DNA from: an uncultured Acidimicrobiia bacterium
GTDB lineage: Bacteria > Actinomycetota > Acidimicrobiia > Acidimicrobiales > AC-14
DNA: 64,000 nt
NCBI GenBank assembly: GCA_963836205.1
Contig: CAWIIV010000011.1
Span: 64,001 to 128,000 of the forward strand
Direction: 5' to 3'
The notes under the pieces were generated by a model. The model was not told where the DNA came from, made no database searches, and saw only the letters and a program-made list of their open reading frames with translations. The position numbers and the translations under genes were made by a program. Positions 1,955 to 19,835 of this stretch are shown here, in pieces (position 1 is the stretch's first letter; every line of letters starts with the position of its first letter).

Positions 1955-2697
1955 CAGCCCAGGCCCTCCAGCCACAGGGGGAGGTCGGCCTGCTCGACCC
2001 CCAGGCGGACACCTGTGCCGGCCAGCTCCGACGGCGGGCCGTCGAAGATGATCCGCTGCTTGAGGACGAGCACCCGGTCGAGGACGTGGGCCACCGAGCC
2101 CAGCTCGTGGGAAACGAGGAGGACCCCGGCACCGTGCTCGTCGACCAGGTGGGTGAGGGAGTCGGCGAAGCGCTTCTGCGACTCGGCGTCGACGCCCGCC
2201 ACCGGCTCGTCGAGGACGAGCAGCTCGGGCTCGCTGGCCAGGGCCTTGGCGATGAACGAGCGCTGCTGCTGGCCGCCGGACAGCTCGCTCACCGGTCGGT
2301 CACGGAGGTCGAGGAGGGCGACCGCCTCCAAGGCGTGGTCGATGGCGATGCGGTCGGTGGGTCCCATCCGGCCCCGCCAGCCGCTGCGGGCCAGGCGGCC
2401 GGCGGCCACCACCTCCTGCACCGAGGCCGGCACCTCCCGGGCCAGGGCCGGGCGCTGGGGGACGTAACCCAGCCGCCACCGGTCGTGGAGGTCGCGGGGG
2501 TCCTCGCCGAAGACCCGCACCGTCCCCGAGGCGGGCCGCAAGAGGCCGAGGAGCACCCGCAGGAGGGTCGACTTGCCCGAGCCGTTGGGTCCGACCAGGG
2601 CGACGAACTCGCCCGCATCGAGGGAGAACGTGACGCCGTCGAGGACGACGTCGTTCCCGTAGGAGAACGACACGCCCTCGGCGCTCAGGATGGTCAT
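1954..2697 (-). CDS. znuC: Zn/Mn ABC transporter ATP-binding protein
   Basis: GPNGSGKST, LSGGQQQR, LDEP, GYVPQ. Confidence 0.88.
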   Translation of the reverse strand: MTILSAEGVSFSYGNDVVLDGVTFSLDAGEFVALVGPNGSGKSTLLRVLLGLLRPASGTVRVFGEDPRDLHDRWRLGYVPQRPALAREVPASVQEVVAAGRLARSGWRGRMGPTDRIAIDHALEAVALLDLRDRPVSELSGGQQQRSFIAKALASEPELLVLDEPVAGVDAESQKRFADSLTHLVDEHGAGVLLVSHELGSVAHVLDRVLVLKQRIIFDGPPSELAGTGVRLGVEQADLPLWLEGLG

Positions 2698-2718
2698 GGC
2701 CGTGCTCGCCCTTCCCAG

Positions 2719-2739
2719 GAATGAGAACCATCCTCATTC
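2719..2739. promoter_or_regulatory. Zur/Fur-family operator upstream of znuCB
   Basis: AT-rich palindrome GAATGAGAACCATCCTCATTC; a related copy lies upstream of znuA. Confidence 0.7.
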
Positions 2740-2777
2740 TACGCCGGCGTCGCCGCGCCGCGGCCGTCGATCGGGAC

Positions 2778-3410
2778 TCAGGGGCGGACGCCGGCGAGGA
2801 GCGCCATCTCCCGCCACTTCCAGTGGCAGTCGACGTCGTCGAAGCCGATCGCCCGCAACCACCGGAGCTGGTCCTCGACCGGCGCCAGCAGGTTGGACGG
2901 GTCGTCGTTGTCGGGATCGGCACCGACCGCGACGAGGAAGCGGTTGTGCAGGCGCTCCGTCGGTGAGGCCACGTGCTCCAGGTTGAGGAACGCCCCTCCC
3001 GGCCGCAGGAGCCCGAAGATCTCCTGGTAGAGGGCCTGCTTGCGTCCGTCGTCGACATGGTGGATGGCGAAGCTGGAGACCACCGCGTCGAAGGGCCCGC
3101 CGAGGTCGGGAAGGGCCTGGTCGAGGTCGTGGGCCAGGACGTCGACCCCGTCTACATCGTGGAAGCGGGCGGTGGCGGCCGCCAGCATGACCGGGGAGAA
3201 GTCCACCGCGATTCCGCCGGCGCCCGGGTGGGCGGCCCGTACGAGCGCCAGCAGCCGTCCGTCACCACAACCCAGGTCGAGCACCCGTTCGACCGTCGTG
3301 GGGAGCAGGTCGAGGAGCTCGGCCTCGCCTTCGTCCCGGTGGGGGATGGAGTCGGCCCGGGTGAGGTACCAGAGGGCGTGCTCGTCGGTGGGCCACAAGT
3401 TCTCCGCCAT
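2778..3410 (-). CDS. Class I SAM-dependent methyltransferase
   Basis: VLDLGCGDG, FDAVVSSFAIHH, LRPGG. Confidence 0.85.
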   Translation of the reverse strand: MAENLWPTDEHALWYLTRADSIPHRDEGEAELLDLLPTTVERVLDLGCGDGRLLALVRAAHPGAGGIAVDFSPVMLAAATARFHDVDGVDVLAHDLDQALPDLGGPFDAVVSSFAIHHVDDGRKQALYQEIFGLLRPGGAFLNLEHVASPTERLHNRFLVAVGADPDNDDPSNLLAPVEDQLRWLRAIGFDDVDCHWKWREMALLAGVRP

Positions 3411-3453
3411 GGGCGCCACGTTGTCACACCCTTCGGCCAGACTCGGGGGACAT

Positions 3454-3939
3454 ATGGCGACCTGGACCGACGTCGAAGCGGCCGCTCCCGAGCTGGCCGC
3501 CACCGCCCGGCAGCGCTTCGAGGCCCACGGCCTGGGGCTGCTGGCCACCCTCCGCCGCGACGGCTCACCCCGTATCAGCGGCATCGAACCGCTCTTCGCC
3601 CTGGGCGAGCTGTGGCTGGGGATGATGCCCGGCTCGCTCAAGGCGGCCGACGTGCAGCGCGACCCCCGGTTCGCCCTGCACAACGCCACCACCGACAAGA
3701 ACGTCACCGACGGCGACGCCAAGATCTGTGGGACGGTCGTGCTGGTCGACGACGAGGACGAGTTCGCCCGCTTCGTCGAGGCGTTCGCAGCCGCTTCCGG
3801 CTACCCGCCGCCGCCAGGGCCGTTCCCCCTGTTCAAGGCCGACGTCCGGGAGGTGTCGACGGTGAAGCCGGCGGGCGACCACCTCGATATCGAGTCGTGG
3901 CGGGAGGGCCGAGGCGTCAGGAAGGTCGAGCGGAGATAG
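3454..3939 (+). CDS. Pyridoxamine 5'-phosphate oxidase-like (split-barrel flavin/F420-binding) protein
   Basis: LATLRRDGSPRISGIE...K..D..RDPRFALH. Confidence 0.8.
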   Translation: MATWTDVEAAAPELAATARQRFEAHGLGLLATLRRDGSPRISGIEPLFALGELWLGMMPGSLKAADVQRDPRFALHNATTDKNVTDGDAKICGTVVLVDDEDEFARFVEAFAAASGYPPPPGPFPLFKADVREVSTVKPAGDHLDIESWREGRGVRKVERR

Positions 3940-5230
3940 CCGTCGCCCCGCCGAAAGAGGGCTGGAGGGCGGGCGGCAGGGCGATCGATCCGTCGGGTTG
4001 GCGGTGGGTCTCGACGACCGCGGCCCACACCCGGGGGACGGCGAGGGCGGAGCCGTTGAGGGTGTTGGCCACGACGGTGCCGGCGCCGTGGGCGCCGCCG
4101 CCGGTGCCGGGCGCCGGGCGGTAGCGGATGTTGGCCCGCCGGGCCTGGTAGTCGGAGAACCACGACACCGACGACGCCTCCAGCCACATGTCGCAACCGG
4201 GGGCGTAGACCTCGAGGTCGAAGGTGCGGGCCGACGACGCCCCCAGGTCGCCCGCGGCCAGGTCGAGCACCCGGTAGGCGAGGCCGAGGGCGGAGAGCGC
4301 GGCCTCGGCCCGGCGCAGGATGTCGGCGTGGACGTCGGCCGCCTGGGCCTCGGTGGCGTAGGCCAGGATCTCGACCTTGTCGAACTCGTGGACTCGGAGG
4401 AGGCCGCGGGTGTCCCGACCCGCCGACCCTGCCTCCCGCCGGAAGCAGGAGGTATGGGCCATGAGGCGGACCGGGAGGTCGGCCTCGTCGTACACGTGGT
4501 CGCGGCCGAGGGACGTGAGGGGGACCTCGGCGGTGGGGATGGCCCAGAGGTCGTCGCGCTCGAGGTGGTAGGCGTCGTCCTCGAACTTGGGCAGGTGGCC
4601 GGTGGACACCATGGTCTCGGTGCGGACGAGCGTGGGGGGTCTGATCTCCTCGTAGGCGTCGCGGTTGAGGTCGAGGGCGAGCTGGCAGAGTGCTCGTACC
4701 AGGCGGGCGCCCTCGCCCCGGTAGAGGGGGAACATCGAGCCGGACAGGCGGGCGCCGGCCTCGAGGTCGAGGATGCCCAGCTCGGTGCCGATGTCCCAAT
4801 GGGGGACGCGCTGGTGGGAGCCGTAGGCGTCCGCGACGAAGCCCTCGACCCGGACGACTTGGTTGTCGGCCTCGGTCAGCCCGTCGGGGGCGTCGGGCGA
4901 CGGGAGGTTGGGCGTGCGCAAGAGGACGTCCCGCAGCTCGGCCGCCACCGCCGCCGCCTCGGTGTCGACCGTCTTGCTCTCCTCGCCGACCGCCCTGCTC
5001 TCCGCCGCCCGCTCGTCGGCTGTGGCCACGTCGCCCGCCCGCCGGGCCTCGCCGACCTCCTTGGACAGGATCCTGACCCGCGCCCGCAGGTCGTCGGCCG
5101 TCGACTTGAGCATGCGCTCCCGCCGGTCGAGCTCGGCCAGCCGGTCGACCTCCTCGGCCGGGACGCCGCGCCGTCCGAGGGCGGCCTTGACCCCGTCGAG
5201 GTCGGTGCGCAGCCGGCGGGCGTCGATCAC
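3917..5230 (-). CDS. serS: Serine--tRNA ligase
   Basis: N-terminal coiled coil, IPTAEVP, CFRREAGS, GLLRVHEFDKVE, TLNGSALA. Confidence 0.97.
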   Translation of the reverse strand: MIDARRLRTDLDGVKAALGRRGVPAEEVDRLAELDRRERMLKSTADDLRARVRILSKEVGEARRAGDVATADERAAESRAVGEESKTVDTEAAAVAAELRDVLLRTPNLPSPDAPDGLTEADNQVVRVEGFVADAYGSHQRVPHWDIGTELGILDLEAGARLSGSMFPLYRGEGARLVRALCQLALDLNRDAYEEIRPPTLVRTETMVSTGHLPKFEDDAYHLERDDLWAIPTAEVPLTSLGRDHVYDEADLPVRLMAHTSCFRREAGSAGRDTRGLLRVHEFDKVEILAYATEAQAADVHADILRRAEAALSALGLAYRVLDLAAGDLGASSARTFDLEVYAPGCDMWLEASSVSWFSDYQARRANIRYRPAPGTGGGAHGAGTVVANTLNGSALAVPRVWAAVVETHRQPDGSIALPPALQPSFGGATAISARPS

Positions 5231-7988: not shown

Positions 7989-8867
7989 TCAGCCCCGGCG
8001 GCAGCCGAGTGCGGTTTGCAGGGTGGCCAGGTTCTGGCGCATGAGCGAGAAGTAGTCGTCCTCGCCCTCGTTCTCCACGCCCTCGATGGTGTTCAGCACG
8101 GCCGTCGTCACCCCGGCCTCCCGGGCCAGGGTCTCCGCCACCTCGGGCGAGACCAGCTCCTCGGTGAAGATGGTGGTCACCCCCCGGCTCCTCACCAGGT
8201 CGGCCAGCTCGGCCAGGCGGCGGGGGTCGGGCTCGGCGTCGGGGGACAGGCCGGAGATGGCTACCTCCTCCAGGCCGTACCGGCGGACCAGGTAGCCGAA
8301 CGCCTGGTGGCTGGTGACGATGAGGCGGGAATCGCACTCGGCCAGGCCGGACCGGAGCTCGGCGTCGAGCTCGTCCAGCCGCCGGCGGTAGTCGTCGGCC
8401 CCCGCCCGGTAGGTGTCGGCATGGGCGGGGTCGACCTCGATCAGGGCCGCCTCGATCCCGTCGGCCACCTCGCCGAACACCACCGGGTCGAGCCACACGT
8501 GGGGGTCGTCCGCCTCCGCGCCGTCCAGGTCAGCCCGGAGGTCGACCGCGTTGGGTGTGAGCCGGGCCGCGTCCTCCACCGCCGGTTGAAAGCCGCCGCC
8601 CAGGTAGAACATGAGGTCGGCCGAGGCGATCCGGTCGAGCTGGCGGGGGTTGAGCTCGATGTCGTGGGGCTCGACGCCGGCCGGCGTGAGGTTGGCGACG
8701 TCGACCTGCTCACCGCCGACACCCCGGGTGGCATCGACCAGGGGGTAGAAGCTGGCCACCACCGACAGCCGCCCGTCGCCCGAGGACCCCGAGCCGCGCT
8801 CACCGCCGCACCCGCCCAACAGGACGGCGAGGGAGACGATGACGCCGACCGCCTGTGTTCTGCGCAT
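7989..8867 (-). CDS. znuA: Metal (Zn) ABC substrate-binding lipoprotein
   Basis: Lipobox LLGGC, EPHD, DPHVWLDP, SHQAFGY; TACCGT-N7-ATG. Confidence 0.88.
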   Translation of the reverse strand: MRRTQAVGVIVSLAVLLGGCGGERGSGSSGDGRLSVVASFYPLVDATRGVGGEQVDVANLTPAGVEPHDIELNPRQLDRIASADLMFYLGGGFQPAVEDAARLTPNAVDLRADLDGAEADDPHVWLDPVVFGEVADGIEAALIEVDPAHADTYRAGADDYRRRLDELDAELRSGLAECDSRLIVTSHQAFGYLVRRYGLEEVAISGLSPDAEPDPRRLAELADLVRSRGVTTIFTEELVSPEVAETLAREAGVTTAVLNTIEGVENEGEDDYFSLMRQNLATLQTALGCRRG

Positions 8868-8887
8868 GCCCGGCACGGTACCACGGT

Positions 8888-8907
8888 GATGGGAATGATT
8901 CTCATTC
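8888..8907. promoter_or_regulatory. Zur/Fur-family operator upstream of znuA
   Basis: GATGGGAATGATTCTCATTC, similar to the reverse complement of the znuC box. Confidence 0.7.
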
Positions 8908-8927
8908 GCTACCCGGGTCGAGCGACT

Positions 8928-9836
8928 CTAGGGCGGCGGCGGTTCCACCTTGGGGGCCGGTCCGAGGCGGGCCAGTTCCCGCTCCACGTCGTCCCAGAGC
9001 AGGAGGCCGTCGGCCTCGCCGTACTCCTTCTGGCTCGACTCCTCCCGGGAGTACCAGCGGAAGAAGATCACCGCGATCACGATCCACAGGTAGAACCCGG
9101 CCCCCACCTTCATGATCAGGCCCGCGAACAACTGGTCGTTGAGGGCCGAGATGTCCCACAGCCGGGGGAACGTCTCGTAGATCGGGTAAAGCGGCTTCTT
9201 GCCGAAGGTGAGGAAGGAGGCCGGCACCGTCGGGACCACCGTCTGGAGGAACAGGTAGAGCATCTGCACCGGCGGTTTCAACCGGGGGACCTCGGGCAGG
9301 GGGCTCAACACCGGGAACCACATGAGCACGGCCGAGGTCAGCAGCACCGCGTGGGCGATGAAATGCAGCGGGTGGTGGACCACCGTGGCCTCCACCACCG
9401 CCGGCCAGTGGCTCAGGACGAGGATCAGGTTGGCCTGGAACAGGGCGAGCGCGGGCTTGGAGAAGGCCCGCACGATCTTGAGCAGCCCCGGCGGGCTGAG
9501 CAGCCGCCGCATGAGCCAGCCGGGCGTTCCCAGCAGGAGCAGGGGCGCCACCACCAGCGTGAGCGTGAGGTGCTGGGCCATGTGGGCGCTGTAGAGGTAG
9601 CCCTCGGCCAGGTCGTGCACCGGCCAGTCGGAGACACCCCACATGACGGCCATCCCCAGGCCGAAGGCCCACAGCTGGCCGCGGGTGGCGACGGCCTCAG
9701 CGCCAGGTCCCCGGCGGGCCCGCTCCCGCCGCAGGGCGACGAGGTAGCCGAGGATGATGAGGGAGAAGAGCGCCCAGCTGTCGAAGTGGGCGTGCCAGGC
9801 GGGGAAGGGGACGGCCGCAGCCGCTATCGGTGCCAA
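8928..9836 (-). CDS. ctaG: caa3-type cytochrome c oxidase assembly factor
   Basis: YLYSAHMAQHL...APLLLLG...DQLFAGLIMK. Confidence 0.88.
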   Translation of the reverse strand: MAPIAAAAVPFPAWHAHFDSWALFSLIILGYLVALRRERARRGPGAEAVATRGQLWAFGLGMAVMWGVSDWPVHDLAEGYLYSAHMAQHLTLTLVVAPLLLLGTPGWLMRRLLSPPGLLKIVRAFSKPALALFQANLILVLSHWPAVVEATVVHHPLHFIAHAVLLTSAVLMWFPVLSPLPEVPRLKPPVQMLYLFLQTVVPTVPASFLTFGKKPLYPIYETFPRLWDISALNDQLFAGLIMKVGAGFYLWIVIAVIFFRWYSREESSQKEYGEADGLLLWDDVERELARLGPAPKVEPPPP

Positions 9837-10180
9837 ATGTGGAACGTCGACAACACGCTGACGTAGCAGAACAGGGCCAGGACGAGGCCGGTGACGAAGA
9901 AGCGGCGGAACAGCTTGCTGTCGAAGCGCAGGTGCATGAAGAACATCACGACCACGCTGAACTTCACGACCGCCATGATCACCAGGATGTAGACCAGCAG
10001 CCCCTCCAGGGCCTCCACGTAGTAGACGCCCACCTCGGCCGCGGTGACCACGGCCAGGAAGAGGGCGATGTAGACGTACTGGAGGTCGCTCGGGTGCTCG
10101 TGGGCGGCGCCGTGGGCCGGCCCCCCGTGCTCGGGCGGGGTGTCGACGACGGGCCCCCCGGTGGGGTCGGTAGCCGTCAT
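9824..10180 (-). CDS. Cytochrome c oxidase subunit IV (CyoD/caa3 type)
   Basis: HPS..QYV.IALFLAVVTAAEV...KF..V..FFMHLRFD. Confidence 0.85.
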   Translation of the reverse strand: MTATDPTGGPVVDTPPEHGGPAHGAAHEHPSDLQYVYIALFLAVVTAAEVGVYYVEALEGLLVYILVIMAVVKFSVVVMFFMHLRFDSKLFRRFFVTGLVLALFCYVSVLSTFHIWHR

Positions 10181-10824
10181 GGGATGAGGTACACGAGGGT
10201 GAAGATCACGATCCAGACGATGTCGACGAAGTGCCAGTAGAGGCCGATGAGCTCGACCACCTCGGCTTTGGCCGACGGTAGCTTCCCCTTCAGGGACATG
10301 CTCCAAAGCGACAGGAGCATGAGCACGCCGATGGTGACGTGGGCCCCGTGGAAGCCGGTCATGATGTAGAAGCTGCTGCCGAAGAGATTGGTGCGGAGGT
10401 TGAGGCCTTCCCGCACGAAGACGGTGAACTCGTAGGCCTGGCCGGCCACGAAGCTCCCGCCCAGCAGGGCGGTGGTGAGCAGCCACACCCGTAGGGCCCG
10501 GTGGTCGCCCCGCTGGATTGCCGACAGGGCCAGCACCATGGTGAGGCTGCTCATGAGCAGGACGAACGAGCTGACCGATGTGTAGGGGATGTCGAAGATG
10601 TCGGCCGGGTTGATCGTCCCCGGCTCGCTCTGGCCCTTATAGAGCAAATACGTCGATATCAGCCCCCCGAAGAGGAGGCACTCCGAGCCCAGGAAGGCCC
10701 ACATCGCCACCTTCTCGTTGCTGAGTCCGGTGGAGGTGGGGGGATGGCCGGGCTCCACCTCGTGGTGGCTGCCCTCGGAGCTGCTTTCGGGGGATGCGGA
10801 GACGTCGTGGTCGGTGACGGTCAT
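10177..10824 (-). CDS. ctaE: Cytochrome c oxidase subunit III
   Basis: WAFLGSE, TGFHGAHV, LYWHFVDIVW. Confidence 0.93.
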   Translation of the reverse strand: MTVTDHDVSASPESSSEGSHHEVEPGHPPTSTGLSNEKVAMWAFLGSECLLFGGLISTYLLYKGQSEPGTINPADIFDIPYTSVSSFVLLMSSLTMVLALSAIQRGDHRALRVWLLTTALLGGSFVAGQAYEFTVFVREGLNLRTNLFGSSFYIMTGFHGAHVTIGVLMLLSLWSMSLKGKLPSAKAEVVELIGLYWHFVDIVWIVIFTLVYLIP

Positions 10825-12968
10825 CCCTGGCCCACCGGCTGGAGGTCTTCGGACGGCGAGTCGTCGGGGGCCAGGGCGGCGTCGTGGCCGTTGGGCTCCT
10901 CCGGCGGCTCCGGCTCGGTGGCCGGCTCGAGTCCCCAGGAGTAGATGCCGCCGAGCATCCAGATGCCGCCGATCACGGCCACGACCCAGAACTTGTAGAT
11001 CATCCCGTAGCAGATGACCGCCAGTCCGACGGCGGTGAAGGCGGGCCAGTACGAGGGCGACGGCAGGTGGATGTGGACGTGCTCCTCGTGGTCGTCCCCG
11101 TGCTCGCCGTCGTGATCACCGTCGGGGCCGTCAGCGTGGTCGCCGTGATCAGCGTCGTGGCCGTCACCGTCGGCGAGGACGACGTCGGTGGACGCCTCCA
11201 CCTCGTCGGTGGCCTCCTCCTGGGGCGACACCTTGGCGTCGGCCGGGATGGGCTTGTCCCGCAGGACCGCCCGGCCGTGCTCGTCCTCGGTGTACTTCTG
11301 GTGCCAGAAGTCGTCGCGGGCGGTGACGGTGGGCACTTCCTTGAAGTTGTACTCGGGCGGCGGGGACGGGATGGTCCACTCCAGGGTGCGGGCGTCCCAG
11401 GGGTCGTCGCCGACGTGGGGACCCTTGCGGCTGACCCACAGGTTGTACATGAACACCATCACCGACAGGGCGATGAGGAACGAGCCCAGGGTGGCCACGA
11501 AGTTCCACACGTCCCAGCCCCGGCCCGTGGGGTACGTGTAGACCCGCCGGGGCATGCCCTGCAGGCCGAGGATGTGGAACGGGGCGAAGGTGGCGTTGAA
11601 CCCGATCATCGTCAGCCAGAAGTGGACCTTGCCCATGCGGTCGGACAGCATCCGCCCGGTGAGCTTGGGGTACCAGTAGTAGAGCCCGGCGAAGAGGCCG
11701 AAGATGCTGCCGCCGAAGAGCACGTAGTGGAAGTGGGCGACGATGTAGTAGGTGTCGGTCTGCTGGGTGTCGGAGGGGACGACGGCGTGGGTCACTCCCG
11801 ACAGCCCGCCGATGGTGAACATGGTCACGAACCCGACCGCGAACAGCAGGGGAGTGGTGAGGCGGATCTTGCCTTTCCACAGGGTGCTGATCCAGTTGAA
11901 GATCTTCACGCCGGTTGGCACCGCGATGAACATGGTGGAGGCGCTGAAGGCGGACAGGGCGACGGGGCCGAGGCCGGTGGCGAACATGTGGTGGGCCCAC
12001 ACGCCCCAGCCCATGAAGCCGATGGCGATGCCCGAGAACACCATGACCTGGTAGCCGAACAGGGGTTTCCGGGAGAACACCGGTAACACCTCGGACACGA
12101 TCCCCATCGCAGGGAGGATCAGGATATAGACCTCCGGATGGCCGAAGAGCCAGAAGAGGTGTTGCCAGAGCAGGGGGTCGGCCCCCGCCTCGGCGTTGAA
12201 GAAGTTGGTGGCGAAGAGCCGGTCGAAGCTGAGCAGGAACAGGGCCACGGTGATGACCGGGATGGCGAAGAGCAGCAGGAACTGGGCCACCAGCGACATC
12301 CACACGAAGATGGGCATCCGCATGAGGCTCATGCCCGGGGCCCGCATGTTGATGACGGTGACGATCAGGTTGACGGCACCGGTCAGCGAGGCGATGCCCA
12401 GGATCTGGAGGCCGAAGACCCAGTAGTCGATGTTGTGGCCGGGCATGTTGCGGGTGAGGGGGGCGTAGCCGAACCAGCCGCCGTTGGGCGCCCCGCCCAG
12501 GAAGAAGCTGGAGTACATGAACAGTCCGCCGACGATGAACACCCAGTAGCCGAAGGCGTTGAGCCGGGGAAACGCCACGTCGCGGGCACCGATCATGAGC
12601 GGCAGCAGGTAGTTGGCGAGCCCGGCCGACAGGGGCATGATCACCAGGAAGATCATGGTGGTGCCGTGCATGGTGAAGATCTGGTTGTAGGCGTCGGCGC
12701 TGAGGAAGGTGCTGTTGGGCGAACCCAGCTGGACTCGCAGCAGGAGGGCCTCGATGCCGCCGATCAGGAAGAAGATCATGGCCGAGACGGCGTAGAGGAC
12801 GCCGATCTTCTTGTGGTCGACGGTGGTGATCCACCCCCACAGGCCCTTGGCGTCGCCGGTGGGCCGCCGGAGGAGGCGGGTGGGGGCCTTGGCGTCGGGG
12901 GTGCCGGGTGCGCCAGGGCCGACGGGTGAGGCCGGGGCCGCGGGCGCCGGTTGGGTGACGATGGCCAT
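10821..12968 (-). CDS. ctaD: Cytochrome c oxidase subunit I (A1 type, catalytically complete) with C-terminal extension
   Basis: FTMHG, GHPEVY, WAHH, PTGVK, AHFHY and MPRR all intact. Confidence 0.97.
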   Translation of the reverse strand: MAIVTQPAPAAPASPVGPGAPGTPDAKAPTRLLRRPTGDAKGLWGWITTVDHKKIGVLYAVSAMIFFLIGGIEALLLRVQLGSPNSTFLSADAYNQIFTMHGTTMIFLVIMPLSAGLANYLLPLMIGARDVAFPRLNAFGYWVFIVGGLFMYSSFFLGGAPNGGWFGYAPLTRNMPGHNIDYWVFGLQILGIASLTGAVNLIVTVINMRAPGMSLMRMPIFVWMSLVAQFLLLFAIPVITVALFLLSFDRLFATNFFNAEAGADPLLWQHLFWLFGHPEVYILILPAMGIVSEVLPVFSRKPLFGYQVMVFSGIAIGFMGWGVWAHHMFATGLGPVALSAFSASTMFIAVPTGVKIFNWISTLWKGKIRLTTPLLFAVGFVTMFTIGGLSGVTHAVVPSDTQQTDTYYIVAHFHYVLFGGSIFGLFAGLYYWYPKLTGRMLSDRMGKVHFWLTMIGFNATFAPFHILGLQGMPRRVYTYPTGRGWDVWNFVATLGSFLIALSVMVFMYNLWVSRKGPHVGDDPWDARTLEWTIPSPPPEYNFKEVPTVTARDDFWHQKYTEDEHGRAVLRDKPIPADAKVSPQEEATDEVEASTDVVLADGDGHDADHGDHADGPDGDHDGEHGDDHEEHVHIHLPSPSYWPAFTAVGLAVICYGMIYKFWVVAVIGGIWMLGGIYSWGLEPATEPEPPEEPNGHDAALAPDDSPSEDLQPVGQG

Positions 12969-13020
12969 CAGGAGCGCCCGGCCGCGATAGGCCACGTCGG
13001 GGGAAGGAGGTGGTGTTCGG

Positions 13021-14040
13021 TCACTGCAACGTCTCCAGGTAGGCGATGAGCTGGTCGATCTCGTCGTCGGTGAGGCCCAGGTCGGGCATCAGCGAGCCGG
13101 GCTTGACCGCAGGCGGGTCCGCCAGCCAGGTGCGGAGGTTCTCCTCGTTGAGGTTGAAGATGCTGCCGGCGAAGGTCTTGCGGCTCTGGAAGTGGGTGAG
13201 GTCGGGACCGATCTTGCCCTGCGAGACCCCGGCCACCGTGTGGCAGCCGGCGCAGCCCTTGGCGCTGAAGAGAGCCAGGCCCTCGGCCGCGGGGCCGCCC
13301 GCGGGCGGGGTGACAGCGGCCGAGCGCTGTCGCGCCACCCAGGTGTCGAAGTTGGCCGGGGTGTGGGCGACGGCCTGGGCTCGCATGTTGGCGTGGGAGA
13401 GCCCGCAGAACTCGGTGCACTGCCCGAGGTAGGTGCCGGGCTTGTCGGCCTCGAAGCTCATATGGTTGACCCGGCCGGGGATGACGTCGGTCTTCCCGGC
13501 GAGGGGCGGGATCCAGTAGCTGTGGATGACGTCGACGCTCTCCAGGTTGAGCTCGACGGGCATGCCGGCGGGGATGTTGAGCTCGTTGGCGGTGGTGATG
13601 CCGAGATCGTCGTAGCGGTACTCCCACCAGTACTGGTGGCCGATGACGGTGACGTGGAGGGCGTTGGCCGGCTTCTCGGCCAGGTCGAAGATGGTGGCGA
13701 TCGTGGGGATGGCGATGGCGAACAGGATGAGGGCGGGGATGAGCGTCCAGCCCACCTCGAGCTTGGTGTTGCCGTGGATCTGCTCCGGCTCGGGCCCGGG
13801 CCGGTCACGGAACCTGATCACGCAGTAGAGGACGAGGGCGGGCACCAGCACGAGAAACACACCGGCGATGAGAAAAACCGGCTCGCTCAGGTCGAGGATC
13901 TTCTTGGCCACCGGACCCGCAGGCTCCATCGTGTCCTGGGGGGCCTTCTCGGCGCAGGCGCCGAGGGTGAGGAGGAGCCCGCCGCTGGCGAACGCGCCCA
14001 GACGCCGGAGCCCTCGGGCTGGACTCGTGAAGCCGTTCAC
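13021..14040 (-). CDS. ctaC: Cytochrome c oxidase subunit II with fused cytochrome c (caa3 type); start uncertain (14040-14085)
   Basis: Lipobox LGAC, DVIHS, CuA motif CTEFCGLSHANM, CAGCH and distal Met. Confidence 0.93.
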   Translation of the reverse strand: MNGFTSPARGLRRLGAFASGGLLLTLGACAEKAPQDTMEPAGPVAKKILDLSEPVFLIAGVFLVLVPALVLYCVIRFRDRPGPEPEQIHGNTKLEVGWTLIPALILFAIAIPTIATIFDLAEKPANALHVTVIGHQYWWEYRYDDLGITTANELNIPAGMPVELNLESVDVIHSYWIPPLAGKTDVIPGRVNHMSFEADKPGTYLGQCTEFCGLSHANMRAQAVAHTPANFDTWVARQRSAAVTPPAGGPAAEGLALFSAKGCAGCHTVAGVSQGKIGPDLTHFQSRKTFAGSIFNLNEENLRTWLADPPAVKPGSLMPDLGLTDDEIDQLIAYLETLQ

Positions 14041-14042
14041 AT
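14025..14042. promoter_or_regulatory. Rex operator-like site at the ctaC start
   Basis: TCGTGAAGCCGTTCACAT vs consensus TTGTGAAnnnnTTCACAA. Confidence 0.6.
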
Positions 14043-14101
14043 CAGTGACTCTCGCGGTTCGCTCCGCGCCCGTCCAATCCCTCATGCCAGCCCCTTGGCC
14101 C

Positions 14102-15103
14102 TCATGCCACCTTGGCCTTGCCGTTCATGTTGGGGTGGACGTCGCACTGGAAGAAGTACTCGCCCGGTGCCGGGCTGGCGAAGTGGTAGGTGACCTCGGC
14201 CGGACCGGCCACGATGTCGCCCTTGAAGATGGGGGGCGCGGTGGCGTCGGCACCGCCGTAGAGCGACACGTTGTGGGGAATCCCCGTGTCGTCGTTCTTG
14301 AGGACGATCTCGGCCTCGCCTGCCGGCAGGGAGAACTCCTTGAGGTCGAAGGCGATGTCGTCGGCCACGATCTCGACCGCGCCGGGGGCGTGGCCCTCCT
14401 GGCCCCCGCCGTGGTGCTCGATGTGGCGCTCGCCGGCACTGGCCGCCACCAGTCCCCCGGCGATCATGAGCACGCCGGCGACGCCGAGCACGGAGACCAT
14501 GGTGCGGGCCGAGATCGACGGCCGCAGGGCGAGCAGGGTGGCCATCCCGAGGATGACGACGGCCACCGCCAGCGCGATCCAGGTGGATGCCATCTCGGGC
14601 ACGGCCAGCAGGATGCGGGACATGAAGTACATCAGCGAGGCGATGCAGAACAGCCCCAGGACGGGGATGCCGATGGGCAGGAGGTTGATCTGGCGACCGG
14701 TGGTGTCGGCCGACACCCGGGCCAGCCAGCCGGCGACGGTGACCAGTCCCAGGCCGACGCCGAAGTAGGCGGGCAGGGGCCCCACCACCAGGCCGAGCAG
14801 GAGGAGGGTGATCGAGAGGGCGGCGGTGAAGGGCCAGGAGCCGCCGGCCGGAAGGGGCGCCCGGGCGACCTCGTGGTAGGCGGGCGGGTCGGCGTCGGGG
14901 GCGACCCACTCGGGCGCGTCGTTGACCCGGAATCCGGCGACGACGACCCCGGCGAAGCCGGCCACGCCGACCAGGAGCAGGTAGAGGGTGATGCCCAGCC
15001 AGTCGCCGGTGAAGGCGCCGTAGACGATGCTCAGGAGGAGGGACGCGGCCGAGACGGGCAGGAAGATCCGCGACGGCTGGGTGAGGACGGCCGACTTCGC
15101 CAT
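14102..15103 (-). CDS. Membrane protein: actinobacterial CtaF-like N-terminus, extra TM helices and C-terminal type-1 Cu cupredoxin
   Basis: RIF...YG..TGDWLGIT and SWPFTAAL resemble CtaF; PHNV...FQCDVHPNM copper ligands; ATGA overlap with the upstream gene. Confidence 0.75.
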   Translation of the reverse strand: MAKSAVLTQPSRIFLPVSAASLLLSIVYGAFTGDWLGITLYLLLVGVAGFAGVVVAGFRVNDAPEWVAPDADPPAYHEVARAPLPAGGSWPFTAALSITLLLLGLVVGPLPAYFGVGLGLVTVAGWLARVSADTTGRQINLLPIGIPVLGLFCIASLMYFMSRILLAVPEMASTWIALAVAVVILGMATLLALRPSISARTMVSVLGVAGVLMIAGGLVAASAGERHIEHHGGGQEGHAPGAVEIVADDIAFDLKEFSLPAGEAEIVLKNDDTGIPHNVSLYGGADATAPPIFKGDIVAGPAEVTYHFASPAPGEYFFQCDVHPNMNGKAKVA

Positions 15104-15762
15104 CAGCCGTTGACCCGGCTGAGCACGAACAGCACGGTGCCGATCGCGAACCAGATGGCATTGGTGTACTGGAAGAACAGGATGCCGCTGCGCAGCGGGT
15201 CGTGGTGGTCGGCGGTGAAGTGCCCGAGCAGCGAGCGTCCGGCCAGGAGCACGAGCAGGCCCATGGCCGTGAGCAGGTGCACCAGGTGGTAGCCGATGAG
15301 CACGTAGTAGAAGGTGCCGTAGGCGTGGTCGCCGACTCCGAAGCCGGCCTTGCCGAAGGCGGCCCACTCGGCGTTGGCCGCCGCCACCCCGAGGAACACG
15401 GTGAGGATCAGGGCGATGGCCACGTTGCGCTGGTCGTTCTCGCGCACCGCCCGGATCGCCCACATGGCCGCCGCGGAAGCCATGGTGACGGTGATGGTGA
15501 CGACGGAGGGGATGTAGGTGCCGACGCCGACGTCGACCGGCGGCCACGCCGACGACCCGTCCTTGACCGCGAAGTAGGCGGCCACGATGGTCGACAGCAC
15601 CATGGCGTCGGCCACCATGAACAGGTAGGTGCCGAGGGCCCGGGTGCGATCGGGGAGGACGCGGGCGGGCGTGGGCTTCACCCCGCTGGGCAGGGCGAGG
15701 GGCGCCGCGGGGGAGGCGGCCGGGGAGGCGTCGGTGCGGGCGGGCGCGGTGACGGCCGTCAC
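15103..15762 (-). CDS. Divergent heme-copper oxidase subunit III paralog
   Basis: LFMVADAM, YYVLIGYHLVH and FFQYTNAIW align to CtaE. Confidence 0.8.
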   Translation of the reverse strand: MTAVTAPARTDASPAASPAAPLALPSGVKPTPARVLPDRTRALGTYLFMVADAMVLSTIVAAYFAVKDGSSAWPPVDVGVGTYIPSVVTITVTMASAAAMWAIRAVRENDQRNVAIALILTVFLGVAAANAEWAAFGKAGFGVGDHAYGTFYYVLIGYHLVHLLTAMGLLVLLAGRSLLGHFTADHHDPLRSGILFFQYTNAIWFAIGTVLFVLSRVNG

Positions 15763-15778
15763 GAGCGATGAACCATCA

Positions 15779-17458
15779 TCAGGGCTGGGCCTCCGGTGGG
15801 GCCAGGTCGAGGAGGGGCGTCTCGGAGCGCACCTCGGGGAGGACGCGGAAGTTGTCGGCGGGCGGGGGCGACGTGGTGGTCCACTCCAGGGTGTGGCCGC
15901 CCCACGGATCGGATCCGGCGGCCTGACCCCGGCCGGCGAGCACACTGACCAGCAGGTTCAGGATCAGGAGCAGCACCCCGAACACGATGATCACCCCGCC
16001 GATGGAGGCGATGAGGTTGGCCGGCGCCCAGTTGCCGTCGGTGACGTAGCTGGCGGTGTGGGCGCCCATGTCCTGGATGCCGAGCACGAACATGGCCAGG
16101 AACGTGAGGTGCATGCCCCCCACCAGGGCCAGCCACTGGATGCGGCCGAGGCCCTCCGACAGGTGGCGGCCCCAGAGCTTGGGCGCCCAGTAGTAGATGG
16201 CGGCCACCGCGCCCGAGAGGGCAGCCCCGAAGAAGAGCGTGTGCTGGGTGGCGACGCCCCAGTAGTTGCGGTGGGAGCGGCCGCCGGCGTCGAGGCCGGC
16301 GATCAGCTCGCCGGCCAGGCCGATGGCGAGCAGGCTGATCATGCCCACCACGTGGAGCATCGGCACCGACCGCAGCCGCTGCTTGAGCGTCTTGTCCTTG
16401 CGGGCGGCGGTGACGATGGTGGCCAGCCAGTTCAGGATCAGGGAGGCCACCGGCAGCAGGACGAGGAGGACGCCGAGGGCGAACAGGGGCCGGGCCCGCC
16501 GCAGGTTGCCCACCTCGCTGCCCCAGCCGGCGAACGACAGGACCCCGATGGCGGCGATGGCGGCGATGGCCCGGGGGTGGCTGAAGAGCCGGCGGCGGGC
16601 GAACACGGGGATGATGTCGGACGCCGCCCCCAGGGCCGGCAGCAGGAGGGCCCACAGCAGGGGGAAGGCGCCGAACCAGAACAGCCGGGGCCACAGGAGA
16701 GGGTTGCCGCCCCGGGTGCCGGTGAACCCGTTGAAGACGTGGCCGCCGTAGTGGCGGTCGACGAAGAGCAGGAGGAGCACGCCCACCAGTACCGGGAGGG
16801 CCAGGAGCATCACCGCCGAGGACACGGTGGCGGACCAGCTGAACAGGGGGATGCGGGCCATGGTGAGGCCGGGCGCCCGCAGTTGGAGGACGGTGGCGAG
16901 CACGTTGATCGCCACCGTGATGGCCGCCACCGCCACCACGATCAGGCCCAGGATGAGCAGGTCGATGCCCTCGCCGGCGAAGGCGGCGCCCTCGGGGAGG
17001 GGCGAGCTGAGGGTCCATCCCCCCACCACGTCGGACACCAACGGGGCCGCCGCCACCATCGCCGCCCCGCCCAGGAACAGCCAGAGGGACAGGGCGTGGA
17101 CCCGGGGAAAGGCCATCCGGGTGGCGCCGATCTGGAGGGGCACCATGGCCGTGACCAGGCCCAGCCAGAGGGGGAGGAGGAAGAGGAACACCATCATCAC
17201 GCCGTGCATGGTGAAGAGCTGGCGGTAGGTGTTGCCGCCGACGACATCGAGGTCGGGGGCGGCCAGCTGCGACCGCATGATCATGGCCAGCACCCCGCCG
17301 GCCACGAGGAAGGCGAGGGAGGCGGCGATGAAGAGCGTGCCGATGACCTTGTGGTCGGTTCCGGCGGTGGAACCCTGGTCAACCTCGACCTCGACCGTCT
17401 CGGGCTCGGACGCGGCTCCGGGGGCGTCCGTCTCGGGACTGGCGTCGGTGATCGTCAT
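15779..17458 (-). CDS. Heme-copper oxidase subunit I paralog lacking the binuclear-centre ligands (pseudo-oxidase)
   Basis: Colinear with ctaD (DHKxIG, FTMHG, AFPR, YYWxPKLxGR, DPWxxxTLEW) but GHPEVY->AFPLLW, WAHH->WGSE, AHFH->ATQH. Confidence 0.85.
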   Translation of the reverse strand: MTITDASPETDAPGAASEPETVEVEVDQGSTAGTDHKVIGTLFIAASLAFLVAGGVLAMIMRSQLAAPDLDVVGGNTYRQLFTMHGVMMVFLFLLPLWLGLVTAMVPLQIGATRMAFPRVHALSLWLFLGGAAMVAAAPLVSDVVGGWTLSSPLPEGAAFAGEGIDLLILGLIVVAVAAITVAINVLATVLQLRAPGLTMARIPLFSWSATVSSAVMLLALPVLVGVLLLLFVDRHYGGHVFNGFTGTRGGNPLLWPRLFWFGAFPLLWALLLPALGAASDIIPVFARRRLFSHPRAIAAIAAIGVLSFAGWGSEVGNLRRARPLFALGVLLVLLPVASLILNWLATIVTAARKDKTLKQRLRSVPMLHVVGMISLLAIGLAGELIAGLDAGGRSHRNYWGVATQHTLFFGAALSGAVAAIYYWAPKLWGRHLSEGLGRIQWLALVGGMHLTFLAMFVLGIQDMGAHTASYVTDGNWAPANLIASIGGVIIVFGVLLLILNLLVSVLAGRGQAAGSDPWGGHTLEWTTTSPPPADNFRVLPEVRSETPLLDLAPPEAQP

Positions 17459-17695
17459 TGCGTCGCGGACTGTAGTGGGCGGCCTCCTGGGTATTCGAAC
17501 TGAGAACCCCCGGTCGGCGACGGTCGCTCGCCACGGCGGACGGAAAAATTACTGTCTGCAGGGGTGCGGACGATGGTGCGAGCTCGAGCGTGCGCCGCCT
17601 TTCTGCGCCGGACGGTCGCCGGCCGACAAGACCGTTCGGTGACCCCGCCCTGCGAACGGGTGACGGTGAACGTCCTCTCCCGGCGGCGGAGGCGA

Positions 17696-18048
17696 GCCGT
17701 CTGCGAACCGGGGACGGATCCGGTGGCCAGGACCACCGAAAGTGTCACCGGTTGGAGGTGGGGCGGCGCCGTCTGCGAACCGGGGACGGATCCGGTGGCC
17801 AGGACCACCGAAAGTGTCACCGGTTCGAGGTGGGGCGGCGCCGTCTGCGAACCGGGGACGGATCCGGTGGCCAGGACCACCGAAAGTGTCACCGGTTGGA
17901 GGTGGGGGCGCGCCGTCTGCGAACTGGTGACGGATCTGGTGGCCAGGACCACCAGAAACGTCACCGGTTGGAGGTGGGGGCGCGCCGTCTGCGAACTGGT
18001 GACGGATCTGGTGGCCAGGACCACCAGAAACGTCACCGGTTGGAGGTG
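17696..18048. repeat. Five tandem 72-bp REP-like palindromic units
   Basis: Units start at 17696, 17768, 17840, 17912, 17984; three of variant A, two of variant B; no unique spacers. Confidence 0.92.
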
Positions 18049-18054
18049 CAGGCG

Positions 18055-18954
18055 GTGAGTGTGCCTTCGGCGCCTGAGTGGCCGGGGGTTCTGGCCGCGT
18101 GGACGTTCGAGCCGGTGACGGTCGCGGGCCTGGCCTCGGCGGCGGTGGCCTACGGGCAGGCGTGCCGGGTGGCCCGGTCGCTCACTCCCCGCCACCCGGT
18201 CGACGCATGGCGGCGGGCGGCGTTCTTCGGCGGGCTGGCGGTGGTGGGGGTCGCCCTCCTCTCGCCGGTCGACACCTACGCCGACGCCCTCCTGTCGGTC
18301 CACATGGCCCAGCACGTGCTGCTGACCCTCGTGGCCGCGCCCCTGCTCCTCCTGGGCCGGCCGGGGGAGCTGGCCCTGCGGGTGGTGTCGCCCGCCCGCC
18401 GGCGGCGGTGGCTGCGGGCCGGCCACTCCCCGGCCGTCCGGCTGGCGTCGGCACCCCTCGTGGCCTGGACCGTCTTCGCCGCCGCGGGCTGGGTTGTCCA
18501 CTTCTCGCCCCTGTTCGACGCCGCCCTCCGGTCCCAGCAGGTGCACGTCGCCGAGCACGCCCTGTTCCTGGGCACCGCCCTGTTGTTCTGGTGGCCGGTC
18601 GTGGGCGGCCATCCCGGCCGGCGTCCACTGGCCCACCCTGTCCGCCTCCTCTACCTGGGGGTGGCGATGCCCCAGAACACGTTCTTGGCCCTGGCCATCC
18701 TCGGGGCCAACGGGGTCCTCTACTCCCACTACGCCGATCTGGCCCGCTCGTGGGGACCGTCGCCCTTGGCCGACCAGCGCCAGGGGGCGGGGCTCATGTG
18801 GGTGGCCGGCGACCTGATCCTGCTGGTGTCGGTGCTGTTGGTGGCCGCCGCGTGGGCCCGCCACGAGCAGCGGGCGACGGAGCGGGCCGAGCGGGCGGAG
18901 GACGCGGCCGCGGCCGAGGCCGAGGCCGGCGCGGGCGCCCCCGGTTCTCCTTAG
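18055..18954 (+). CDS. ctaG: Second caa3-type CtaG assembly factor
   Basis: SVHMAQHVLL...APLLLLGRP...EHALF...DQRQGAGLMW. Confidence 0.85.
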   Translation: MSVPSAPEWPGVLAAWTFEPVTVAGLASAAVAYGQACRVARSLTPRHPVDAWRRAAFFGGLAVVGVALLSPVDTYADALLSVHMAQHVLLTLVAAPLLLLGRPGELALRVVSPARRRRWLRAGHSPAVRLASAPLVAWTVFAAAGWVVHFSPLFDAALRSQQVHVAEHALFLGTALLFWWPVVGGHPGRRPLAHPVRLLYLGVAMPQNTFLALAILGANGVLYSHYADLARSWGPSPLADQRQGAGLMWVAGDLILLVSVLLVAAAWARHEQRATERAERAEDAAAAEAEAGAGAPGSP

Positions 18955-19835
18955 TGGGGCAGGAGCTGGTCGACGGCCATGGCGCCGAACAGGAGGGTGA
19001 TGTAGGTGATCGACCACCCGAACAGCCGCATGGCCTTCTCGTAGGTGCCGCTGCGGGCCAGGGCCACCGCATGCCAGGTGAAGATGGCGCCCAGGACGAT
19101 CGCCGCCCCCCCGTAGAGCAGGCCCATCTCGCCCACCGGCCAGAAGGCGAGGCTGATCGCCCACAGGATGAGGGTGTAGGCCACGATCCGGCGGGACGTG
19201 AACTCGAAGCTGGCCACCGACGGGAGCATGGGGACTCCGGCGGCCGAGTAGTCGTCGCGGTAGCGGACGGCGAGGGCCCAGAAGTGGGGCGGGGTCCAGG
19301 CGAAGATGATGCCGAAGAGCACGACCGGGGCCCAGCTCAGCGTCCCGGTGACTGCGGCCCAGCCGACCAGCACCGGCACCGCCCCCGCGGCCCCGCCGAT
19401 CACGATGTTCTGGGTCGACGTCCGCTTGAGCCACAGGCTGTAGACGAAGACGTAGAAGAGGGTGGCCGACACCGCCAGCAGGGCGCTCAGGGGGTTCACC
19501 GTCAGCCACAGGACCGCCGCCGCCAGCAGCTCGAGGGCGATGGCGAACACCAGGGCGTTGCGGGGCGTGATCTCGCCGGTGACCAGGGGGCGCTTCTGGG
19601 TGCGCTGCATGATCGTGTCGATGTCGCGGTCGATGACCATGTTGGTGGCGTTGGCGCCGGCCGCGGCCAGGGTGCCGCCGACCAGGGTGGCGAAGATGAG
19701 CCACACCTCCGGCATCCCCCGCTGGGCCACCACCATCGTCGGCACCGTGGTCACCAGGAGCAGCTCGATGATGCGCGGCTTGGTGAGCGCCAGGTAGGCC
19801 GCGAAACGGGAACGGGTGGTGAGAACGGCGGTCAT
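18951..19835 (-). CDS. ctaB: Protoheme IX farnesyltransferase (heme o synthase)
   Basis: LTKPRI, DRDID..MQRT.KRPL, WTPPHFWAL. Confidence 0.95.
   Translation of the reverse strand: MTAVLTTRSRFAAYLALTKPRIIELLLVTTVPTMVVAQRGMPEVWLIFATLVGGTLAAAGANATNMVIDRDIDTIMQRTQKRPLVTGEITPRNALVFAIALELLAAAVLWLTVNPLSALLAVSATLFYVFVYSLWLKRTSTQNIVIGGAAGAVPVLVGWAAVTGTLSWAPVVLFGIIFAWTPPHFWALAVRYRDDYSAAGVPMLPSVASFEFTSRRIVAYTLILWAISLAFWPVGEMGLLYGGAAIVLGAIFTWHAVALARSGTYEKAMRLFGWSITYITLLFGAMAVDQLLPH

Follow-up and report, generated by a model that had tools for sequence, protein, structure and literature searches.

The gene module and its layout

This work concerns three adjacent genes, referred to here as g1, g2 and g3, in the genome of an uncultured bacterium of the class Acidimicrobiia (order Acidimicrobiales, GTDB lineage AC-14; assembly GCA_963836205.1). 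They lie in a stretch of 64,000 nucleotides of contig CAWIIV010000011.1 (positions 64,001 to 128,000 of the forward strand), which is called the window below and whose first letter is position 1 in all coordinates. The three genes encode relatives of cytochrome oxidase subunits I, III and IV, the last of them fused to a blue-copper (cupredoxin) domain, and they directly precede, on the same strand, a complete ctaC-D-E-IV-G operon for a caa3-type oxidase. We regard the module as a branch of the haem-copper oxidase superfamily that consists of pseudo-enzymes and comes with a new fusion partner. Given the high GC content of the window, open reading frames (ORFs) were counted as genes only if a family match supported them. 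The genes of the module, and the parts of the third one, are the following.

15779..17458, minus strand: g1, COX1-like pseudo-subunit I of 559 amino acids (Pfam COX1, E = 2.1e-84, profile positions 2-436 of 436)
15103..15762, minus strand: g2, COX3-like pseudo-subunit III in the short, five-helix form (Pfam COX3, 2.8e-18)
14102..15103, minus strand: g3, seven-helix protein of 333 amino acids, made of a CtaF-like half, a three-helix anchor and a cupredoxin
14699..15103, minus strand: g3 residues 1-135, four-helix half resembling CtaF, the actinobacterial subunit IV (PF12270, sub-threshold)
14420..14698, minus strand: g3 residues 136-228, three-helix membrane anchor (alignment of relatives)
14102..14419, minus strand: g3 residues 229-333, flexible His/Gly-rich linker followed by a type-1 cupredoxin (Pfam, AlphaFold2 (AF2) and Foldseek)

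The genes are tightly packed. The stop codon of g1 is separated by 16 nt from the first candidate start of g2, which is uncertain (GTG at 15762 or GTG at 15681, with the stop at 15103); the stop of g2 and the start of g3 overlap, as read from the sequence, in TGATG; and 16 nt separate the stop of g3 from the ATG of ctaC, after which ctaD, ctaE, a COX4_pro-type subunit IV and Caa3_CtaG follow on the same strand with overlaps or short gaps. A scan of positions 8500-18300 for promoters and terminators gave no signal above chance. A preliminary description of this DNA had reported three intact, co-oriented ORFs upstream of a complete oxidase operon, and both the coordinates and the description proved correct. 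It had also noted the lack of a CuA subunit II within the module, as is indeed the case: no PF00116 match, indicative of a CuA-bearing subunit II, was found in g1-g3, and the whole genome contains three COX1-like genes but two COX2 genes, both of which lie outside the module and belong to the two canonical oxidases.

Loss of the active site in the subunit I copy

In a pairwise alignment g1 is 34% identical to the neighbouring canonical ctaD, and the two differ in a series of motifs: GHPEVY has become AFPLLW, HH has become SE, AHFHY has become ATQHT and PRR has become GAH, while FTMHG is kept. The change from AHFHY to ATQHT replaces the haem a3 histidine by threonine and leaves the second haem a histidine in place, so that the pair of histidines of the low-spin haem, H85 and H406, is retained and aligned with the canonical ligands. 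Missing from g1 are the three CuB histidines, the cross-link tyrosine, the haem a3 histidine, key residues of the D- and K-channels and the arginine pair.

The same picture emerges from residue columns compared over 133 COX1-like ORFs from the window and from the related loci described below. At all 14 key positions hardly any variation is seen among the 80 complete canonical copies (apart from gaps or a single odd row), whereas the CuB triad, the K-channel lysine, an intact arginine pair and the D-channel aspartate (mostly replaced by arginine) are each missing from every one of the 52 pseudo copies. The remaining non-canonical row, L056_9237, was excluded as a frameshifted canonical ctaD. 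The replacements in the pseudo copies are recurrent, both in the channels (Asp to Arg, Asn to His or Gln, Glu to Leu, Met, Val or Thr, and Lys to Leu) and around the former binuclear centre (CuB His to Phe or Tyr, the HH pair to Ser-Glu, and Tyr to Trp). They are seen equally in the 119 closest clusters (at 90% identity) of a collection of 5.8 billion proteins, which are 55-91% identical to g1. Here the tyrosine is replaced by tryptophan in all 119, the HH pair by Ser in 113 and Glu in 116, and the D-channel aspartate by arginine in 118; the first CuB histidine has given way to Tyr in 108 and Phe in 11, and the high-spin haem histidine to Gln in 66, Thr in 46, Glu in six and Tyr in one. Both low-spin haem histidines are present in all 119.

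As to its ancestry, g1 remains recognizably an oxidase subunit. The best match of its profile among solved structures is CtaD of Mycobacterium smegmatis (6adq_F, 2.7e-141, covering residues 30-552), although g1 falls under all NCBIfam equivalog cut-offs for oxidases (CtaD_CoxA, 409.2 vs 670.75; cyt_aa3_Actin, 382.1 vs 880). Judging from these alignments, g1 is a member of the 12-helix COX1 fold and family that cannot build a haem a3-CuB centre, as the preliminary description had it. Because the CuB site, the haem a3 ligand, the cross-link tyrosine and both proton channels are absent, g1 is unable to reduce O2 or NO, or to pump protons, by the known routes, and it does not qualify as an O2 or NO reductase of any known type. 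In the host's family it retains a predicted bis-histidine site for one low-spin haem, and the constancy of this pair in the 119 clusters bears out the corresponding earlier suggestion.

A comparison with the nitric oxide reductases of the superfamily (cNOR, qNOR, eNOR and others) is appropriate here, since these share with g1 the subunit I fold, the lack of the cross-link tyrosine and altered channels. However, the nitric oxide reductases keep the high-spin haem histidine and the three histidines (plus a glutamate) that serve FeB, none of which is found in g1.

The subunit III copy and the fused third gene

The assignment of g2 to the subunit III family is clear at the level of Pfam (PF00510, 67.2 bits vs a gathering threshold of 23.8). 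Its best NCBIfam model is aa3_CtaE_Actin, which it matches at 42.3 bits vs a cut-off of 190, and it is 22% identical to ctaE. The N-terminal half of g3 stays below the Pfam threshold for the actinobacterial subunit IV (PF12270, 20.8 bits vs 26.9, positions 5-123 of 132); a profile of the membrane part of g3 matches solved CtaF chains at 1e-4 to 8e-3, and at its positions 9-120 it matches 9wcx_m (1.2e-4), 7q21_F (6.5e-4) and 6adq_H (7.2e-4). Positions 82-134 of this profile match, in addition, the first two helices of the long form of subunit III. Within the anchor, P143, P147, S162-R163, G217 and G224 are invariant and R226 is near-invariant (alignment A3).

The C-terminal part of g3 scores above the cut-offs of two cupredoxin families (Cupredoxin_1, 29.8 bits vs 27; Copper-bind, 22.9 vs 21.2), and its predicted type-1 copper ligands, H277, C320, H323 and M326, form a C-x2-H-x2-M arrangement. 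This His/Cys/His/Met set is found in 16 out of 16 cupredoxin-bearing orthologues (alignment A1) and is invariant in alignment A2, so that the type-1 site predicted in the preliminary description appears sound. The AF2 model of g3 (pLDDT 73.8, pTM 0.33) contains seven helices, a linker of low confidence (residues 229-248, pLDDT below 50) and a beta sandwich modelled at pLDDT 81-91. Foldseek places the cupredoxin closest to auracyanin (6kol, 7.5e-6), followed by amicyanin and plastocyanin, all three of which are electron shuttles; the SoxE family of Pfam is matched by only one of 18 members. The charges of the loops, as read from the sequence, are compatible with an N-in, C-out topology, which would place the cupredoxin outside the cell membrane. 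Thus, g3 is predicted to carry a complete type-1 copper ligand set on a flexible tether. One member of the family (L054:5747-6421) has two cupredoxin domains on g3.

Membrane-anchored blue-copper carriers linked to oxidases are exemplified by halocyanin and by sulfocyanin, SoxE, of the Sulfolobus SoxM complex. With such carriers, auracyanin included, g3 shares the type-1 His/Cys/His/Met site, the membrane anchor and the context of terminal oxidase genes, but it differs from them in being fused to the subunit-IV-like protein of a dead oxidase core instead of being a free lipoprotein or a single-helix form.

Taken as a set, the three proteins parallel the CtaD-CtaE-CtaF core of the actinobacterial aa3 oxidase as found in the bcc-aa3 complexes of M. 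smegmatis (6adq, 6hwh) and Corynebacterium glutamicum (7q21), g1 corresponding to CtaD, g2 to CtaE and the first half of g3 to CtaF. Unlike that core, the module is without subunit II, CuB, the haem a3 ligand, the tyrosine and the D- and K-channels, and it misses all the equivalog cut-offs; its CtaF counterpart is fused to three extra helices and a cupredoxin, and it is encoded beside an operon for a caa3-type, not an aa3-type, oxidase.

The parallel extends to the modelled interface. A two-chain model of g1 with g3 reached an ipSAE of 0.77 (0.76, 0.78 and 0.77 in separate runs) vs 0.00 for the best of three controls; among 80 solved complexes 58 attain the mark applied, and among 110 mismatched pairs two do so. 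At least 78% of contacts were shared between the runs, with a partner pLDDT of at least 76. All confident contacts fall within residues 8-130 of g3, that is, in its CtaF-like half, as in the aa3 core, and on the side of g1 they involve residues 113-134, 163-174 and 187-223 and the C-terminal tail. Since CtaD-CtaF complexes have already been solved, the success of the model may reflect likeness to them, and the result supports, but does not show, the binding of g1 by the CtaF-like half of g3. No confident contact to g1 was modelled for the anchor helices or the cupredoxin, which counts neither way.

Distribution and conservation

The spread of the g3 fusion was followed with its membrane profile in 151 genomes of the class and 251 genomes of the phylum, absence meaning here that a match was not found in those samples. 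In the class sample, full-length matches occur in 30 of the 35 other genomes of the host's order and in none of the 115 genomes of other orders, where either the anchor half (approximately positions 133-225) or the CtaF half is found singly, the latter as small ORFs or as a C-terminal extension of ctaD. The phylum sample gave the same pattern, with full-length matches in eight of ten genomes of the order and halves only in 68 genomes outside it, one of these in the host's class. On the evidence of these profile searches, the fused third gene is confined to the host's order among the genomes searched.

A search with the eight-row alignment A2 yielded 80 related loci from species-representative genomes. 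The module is present in 21 of them (L056-L073, L092, L096 and L120), some of these fragmentary, in metagenome-assembled genomes (MAGs) of Acidimicrobiia/Acidimicrobiales. In 49 loci, among L074-L134, the ctaC-D-E-IV-G genes are followed directly by a shorter, free-standing relative of g3, the anchor with one to three cupredoxins, and there is no pseudo-oxidase. The remaining ten loci are archaeal and match through the cupredoxin only. The existence, in other lineages, of homologous free-standing anchored cupredoxins that close caa3 operons favours the role of a carrier over that of a fixed wire from copper to haem.

Within the host's family, orthologues of g1 were found in all 24 other genomes, at 46-84% identity, as compared with at most ~43% for canonical copies. 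Gene order was examined in 32 loci (L024-L055) from 32 relatives, 19 belonging to the same family and 13 to further families of the same order. All 32 preserve the arrangement g1-g2-g3, and ctaC follows directly in 29, being separated in two (L045 and L052), whereas one locus ends. Ratios of non-synonymous to synonymous substitution (dN/dS; NG86 method, ten pairs of five members of the genus) are 0.355 for g1, 0.365 for g2 and 0.320 for g3, as compared with 0.361 for ctaC, 0.271 for ctaD and 0.227 for ctaE. These values are inflated, since high GC3 depresses dS, and are meaningful only between neighbouring genes.

Genomes flagged as unpublished (G008, G009, G015, G017, G021, G023, G200 and eight phylum-level genomes) enter the family counts (24/24 above and, below, 0/41 and 37/41), the synteny of the 32 loci, the ligand tables, the phylum tally and the rows of alignments A1-A4. 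No conclusion depends on them alone, and the dN/dS values of the genus, the result for the 119 clusters and the pattern over order, class and phylum stand without them.

These data bear on the possibility that the three genes are non-functional remnants of a duplicated operon in the course of decay. In line with such a view, the catalytic residues are all gone, the haem ligands have been lost repeatedly in other families, and one genome (G016, locus L043) shows a frameshift that splits g2 (3447-4002) together with asparagine in place of the second haem histidine of g1 (1663-3339), a combination that can be read as local decay or as an assembly error. Decay would hardly be expected, however, to leave intact ORFs and synteny throughout the order, dN/dS values comparable to that of ctaC, non-random replacements fixed in the 119 clusters and structural motifs conserved across the whole clade of 79 sequences described in the next section. 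The conservation data contradict decay, which we regard as highly improbable. The surveys of synteny and of dN/dS proposed in the preliminary description showed the trio to be neither absent nor decaying in the relatives examined, and under purifying selection similar to that on ctaC.

Phylogeny and stepwise loss of cofactor sites

A FastTree phylogeny was built from 254 subunit I sequences after fragments shorter than 430 residues and duplicates had been dropped. Among the best 150 of 12,238 matches in a library of 1.84 billion representatives, 75 are without a complete binuclear ligand set, as judged by a column test in which some cases are possibly alignment slips. All g1-type proteins of the loci, together with 38 representatives, form a single clade of 79 sequences with support 1.0, so that the third check suggested at the outset, a subunit I phylogeny, placed these COX1 copies together. 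The deeper placement of this clade is poorly supported in the tree.

Several further COX1-like groups outside the pseudo clade are without the complete binuclear set (P0144, P0048, P0093, P0080, P0079, P0123, P0091, P0099, P0087 and others). Some of these representatives are 770-850 amino acids long and are, possibly, fusions of subunits I and III; here, too, the ligand calls come from the column test and may include slips.

The second canonical oxidase of the genome (G000, contig C15, ~225.5-229.2 kb) consists of a COX2 gene and a COX1 gene with a CtaF-like extension, and next to it, on the opposite strand, lies a gene for cytochrome b. Its COX1 is closer to g1 than is the neighbouring ctaD. 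The idea that g1 is a recent duplicate of that ctaD was accordingly rejected, the other oxidase type being closer (~40-42% vs 36-37% identity), and none of 69 ctaD proteins of the neighbouring type falls inside the smallest clade that joins the pseudo clade with the C15 COX1.

The pseudo clade splits into three subclades that differ in their cofactor sites. In the subclade of the host's family the pair of haem histidines is present, the a3 histidine is absent and the cupredoxin is present. The second subclade contains the loci without a cupredoxin (L024-L027 and L030-L033); it keeps the haem pair in L032 and L033 and has lost it in several branches (L024-L027, L030 and L031). In the third, all three haem histidines are found in L034-L036, the pair in L029, and none in L028, L092, L096 and L120. 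A cupredoxin thus occurs without haem histidines in L092, L096 and L120, and the histidine pair occurs without a cupredoxin in L032 and L033, which means that the copper and haem sites are not obligately coupled. A strict coupling between cupredoxin and haem ligands was rejected, since all four combinations exist. The g3 proteins that lack a cupredoxin end in tails rich in His and Asp. Conserved throughout the clade are the motifs DHK, PLQxG, AFPR, RAPG, YWxPK and DPWxxxTLEWxxxSPPPxxNF, which are common to it and canonical subunit I. Hence what the whole clade has in common is, as far as the alignments indicate, the scaffold.

This pattern is of importance for the possibility that the module is a redox relay or a new enzyme, a non-O2-reducing complex of the kind proposed in the preliminary description, in which electrons would pass between the type-1 copper and the low-spin haem of g1 and further to the caa3 oxidase, to a bc complex or to quinone. 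Both redox sites are strictly conserved in the host's family, the former binuclear pocket has acquired fixed new residues (Tyr or Phe, Trp, Ser, Glu, and Gln or Thr), and a cupredoxin placed above the haem of subunit I would mimic the route from CuA to haem a. Yet the arginine pair linking CuA with the haem propionates is gone, a long linker of low confidence carries the cupredoxin, for which the model gave no confident contact to g1 (an absence of support only), and an acceptor for the electron of the haem is not evident. Moreover, three loci combine a cupredoxin with a COX1 copy devoid of haem ligands, and two have haem ligands but no cupredoxin. A relay of this kind appears unlikely to us. 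By the same token, the earlier view of a membrane complex carrying one low-spin haem and a type-1 copper stands only in part: both sites are kept in the host's family, but, given their repeated losses, neither is needed for what the family of modules does in common.

Genomic setting and a possible role in oxidase biogenesis

The genes on either side of the module are listed here from the upstream end.

18951..19835, minus strand: ctaB, haem O synthase, upstream of the module (NCBIfam NF003349, 407.5 bits vs a cut-off of 246; Pfam UbiA, 7e-65)
17590..18954, plus strand: second Caa3_CtaG-like gene, divergent (Pfam Caa3_CtaG, 7.3e-66, the domain being ORF residues 188-424)
13021..14085, minus strand: ctaC, subunit II with fused cytochrome c, caa3 type (Pfam COX2, COX2_TM and Cytochrom_C)
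10821..12995, minus strand: ctaD, canonical subunit I with a C-terminal CtaF-like hairpin (Pfam COX1, 4.7e-161)
10177..10824, minus strand: ctaE, canonical subunit III (Pfam COX3, 2.6e-19)
9824..10177, minus strand: subunit IV, COX4_pro type (Pfam COX4_pro, 4.3e-12; start inferred from the translation)
8928..9836, minus strand: ctaG (Caa3_CtaG), assembly factor, last gene of the operon (NCBIfam caa3_CtaG, 1.3e-30, below the cut-off; BLAST synteny)

In ctaD every key residue is present, and PF12270 is weakly matched at residues 645-685; between the COX1 domain and this C-terminal hairpin lies a long acidic insert rich in His, Asp and Gly (residues ~590-645, window ~11060-11230), possibly a metal-binding segment. 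The first ~150 codons of the divergent CtaG-like ORF run across a tandem repeat and are probably non-coding: a 72-bp unit, present 4.9 times with 96% matches at 17696-18048, separates the start of g1 from this gene and generates a spurious N-terminal extension of the ORF. A divergent CtaG-like gene of similar kind is present in many loci of the family. The 3' end of ctaB is convergent with the second CtaG-like gene (4 nt), and a gene for a ZnuA-type metal-binding lipoprotein (7989-8876, minus strand) lies just downstream of the cta operon.

Such surroundings invite the idea of a biogenesis platform, that is, a holdase or chaperone that would take up haem A at the bis-histidine site and/or copper and pass them, or part-assembled subunits, to the nascent caa3 oxidase. 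In the host's family it could be a partial stand-in for Surf1, with copper handled by the cupredoxin or, in relatives, by the His-rich tails. Of 41 genomes of this family, among them 19 with a completeness of at least 90%, none yielded Surf1 (PF02104), while CtaA is present in 37 of the 41, for which reason missing haem A was rejected as the cause of the absence of Surf1 (in the host genome itself, which is 88.6% complete, CtaA was not found). Across the order, Surf1 tends to be absent from families in which the COX1 copy has retained its haem ligands: among the families without Surf1, four have the haem histidines and one does not, and among those with Surf1 the numbers are three and six. Two further families of the order have Surf1 in 17 of 17 and eight of eight genomes, respectively, and among single-family representatives it was found in ten of 16. 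Further points that speak for biogenesis are the position of ctaA beside the module in at least eight relatives, that of ctaB and the second CtaG-like gene just upstream of it here, the genes for redoxin/TlpA-like thiol-disulfide oxidoreductases between g3 and ctaC in two loci (L028:5723-6418 and L029:4789-5337, on the minus and plus strand, respectively) and the His/Asp-rich tails of the g3 proteins without cupredoxin.

Against this stand the exceptions to the Surf1 pattern: family f5 is without both Surf1 and the haem histidines, and f9 has Surf1, the histidine pair and the cupredoxin. The pattern tracks the three subclades of the tree and hence amounts to some 2-3 events, and Surf1 is absent across the class also in lineages without any pseudo-oxidase, so that its absence may reflect the type of oxidase. 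The anti-correlation is thus a lead, confounded by phylogeny and oxidase type, and no evidence of replacement. In addition, many members without a haem ligand and a copper site are still conserved; the genes of the module stand first in a structural operon and are translationally coupled, whereas the known assembly factors stand at its end; and a type-1 site is an electron-transfer site, atypical as a copper donor. On balance, a function in biogenesis seems to us somewhat unlikely.

A proposed tether for a blue-copper carrier

Our preferred, albeit tentative, reading is that the module forms a non-catalytic accessory platform, derived from an oxidase, whose task is to tether to the caa3 branch of the respiratory chain an electron carrier of the blue-copper type. 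The trio would assemble like CtaD-CtaE-CtaF and would be produced, along with the caa3 oxidase, from a shared operon; the platform would keep close to this oxidase a carrier that elsewhere is a free-standing three-helix protein. The carrier, in turn, would take up electrons at a cytochrome bc-type complex and deliver them to caa3 at its entry point, cytochrome c/CuA. The two cytochrome b genes found in the genome indicate that a bc-type donor exists; a module acting as a quinol oxidase in place of complex III was set aside. The retained haem would most likely serve the structure or, at the very most, act as a side relay. Since the scaffold persists in sister lineages that have neither haem ligands nor copper, the function shared by all the modules is envisaged as residing in the protein scaffold.

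Several observations weigh against the carrier tether. The cupredoxin is missing in a large subclade (L024-L027 and L030-L033) in which the scaffold persists, and for this reason the anchoring of a carrier cannot be the family-wide function. The presence of the haem histidine pair in all of the 119 closest clusters argues that the haem may matter beyond a purely structural role. Finally, the genomic setting, with ctaB, two CtaG-like genes, ctaA by the module in at least eight relatives and redoxin genes in two loci, would fit a biogenesis role equally well.

A related but, in our opinion, rather improbable scenario is that the pseudo-oxidase is a docking adaptor, the descendant of an aa3 oxidase hard-wired to the bcc complex in Actinomycetota, which would bridge complex III to the live caa3 oxidase. 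The dead oxidase would then have kept its seat on the bc complex, or would pair side by side with caa3, and electrons would pass via the tethered blue copper and, in the host's family, the low-spin haem, making the module the pseudo-enzyme bridge of a supercomplex.

The preliminary description had offered three roles for the module, an electron relay between the b6-type complex and caa3, a structural partner in a heterodimer of an active and an inactive oxidase, and a haem/copper store or assembly chaperone. The elements on which it built, namely the dead centre, the haem site, the copper ligand set and the missing subunit II, have held, but none of the three roles is proven. Its remark that a described system of this architecture was not known to it also agrees with our search: no description of such a module was found in the full-text literature, supplements being outside that search. 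Nor does one appear in the accessible portions of Murali et al. 2024 (PMC11214002), whose supplementary datasets could list such a family, or of Hederstedt 2022 (PMC9145763).

Implications

In the public databases the 119 clusters carry source names such as "cytochrome c oxidase subunit I" or "cbb3-type cytochrome c oxidase subunit I". Because of these names, metabolic reconstructions of Acidimicrobiia, which are abundant in soil and water metagenomes, probably over-count terminal oxidases. Haem-copper oxidases are defined by their binuclear centre, and the module would provide a clear example of an A-family-like subunit I which is without this whole centre and both proton channels and has nevertheless been kept through the history of an entire order. 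The dead subunit I, moreover, retains its subunit III- and IV-like partners within the operon of a working oxidase. The natural variants, with two haem sites, one or none, and with or without copper, offer a ready test of what the scaffold of subunit I can do without its chemistry. If the module tethers a carrier, it would represent a new solution for the delivery of electrons to oxidases in cells of the Gram-positive type that lack a soluble cytochrome c; if, instead, it is a haem A chaperone in a lineage without Surf1, it would be a new solution for the assembly of oxidases.

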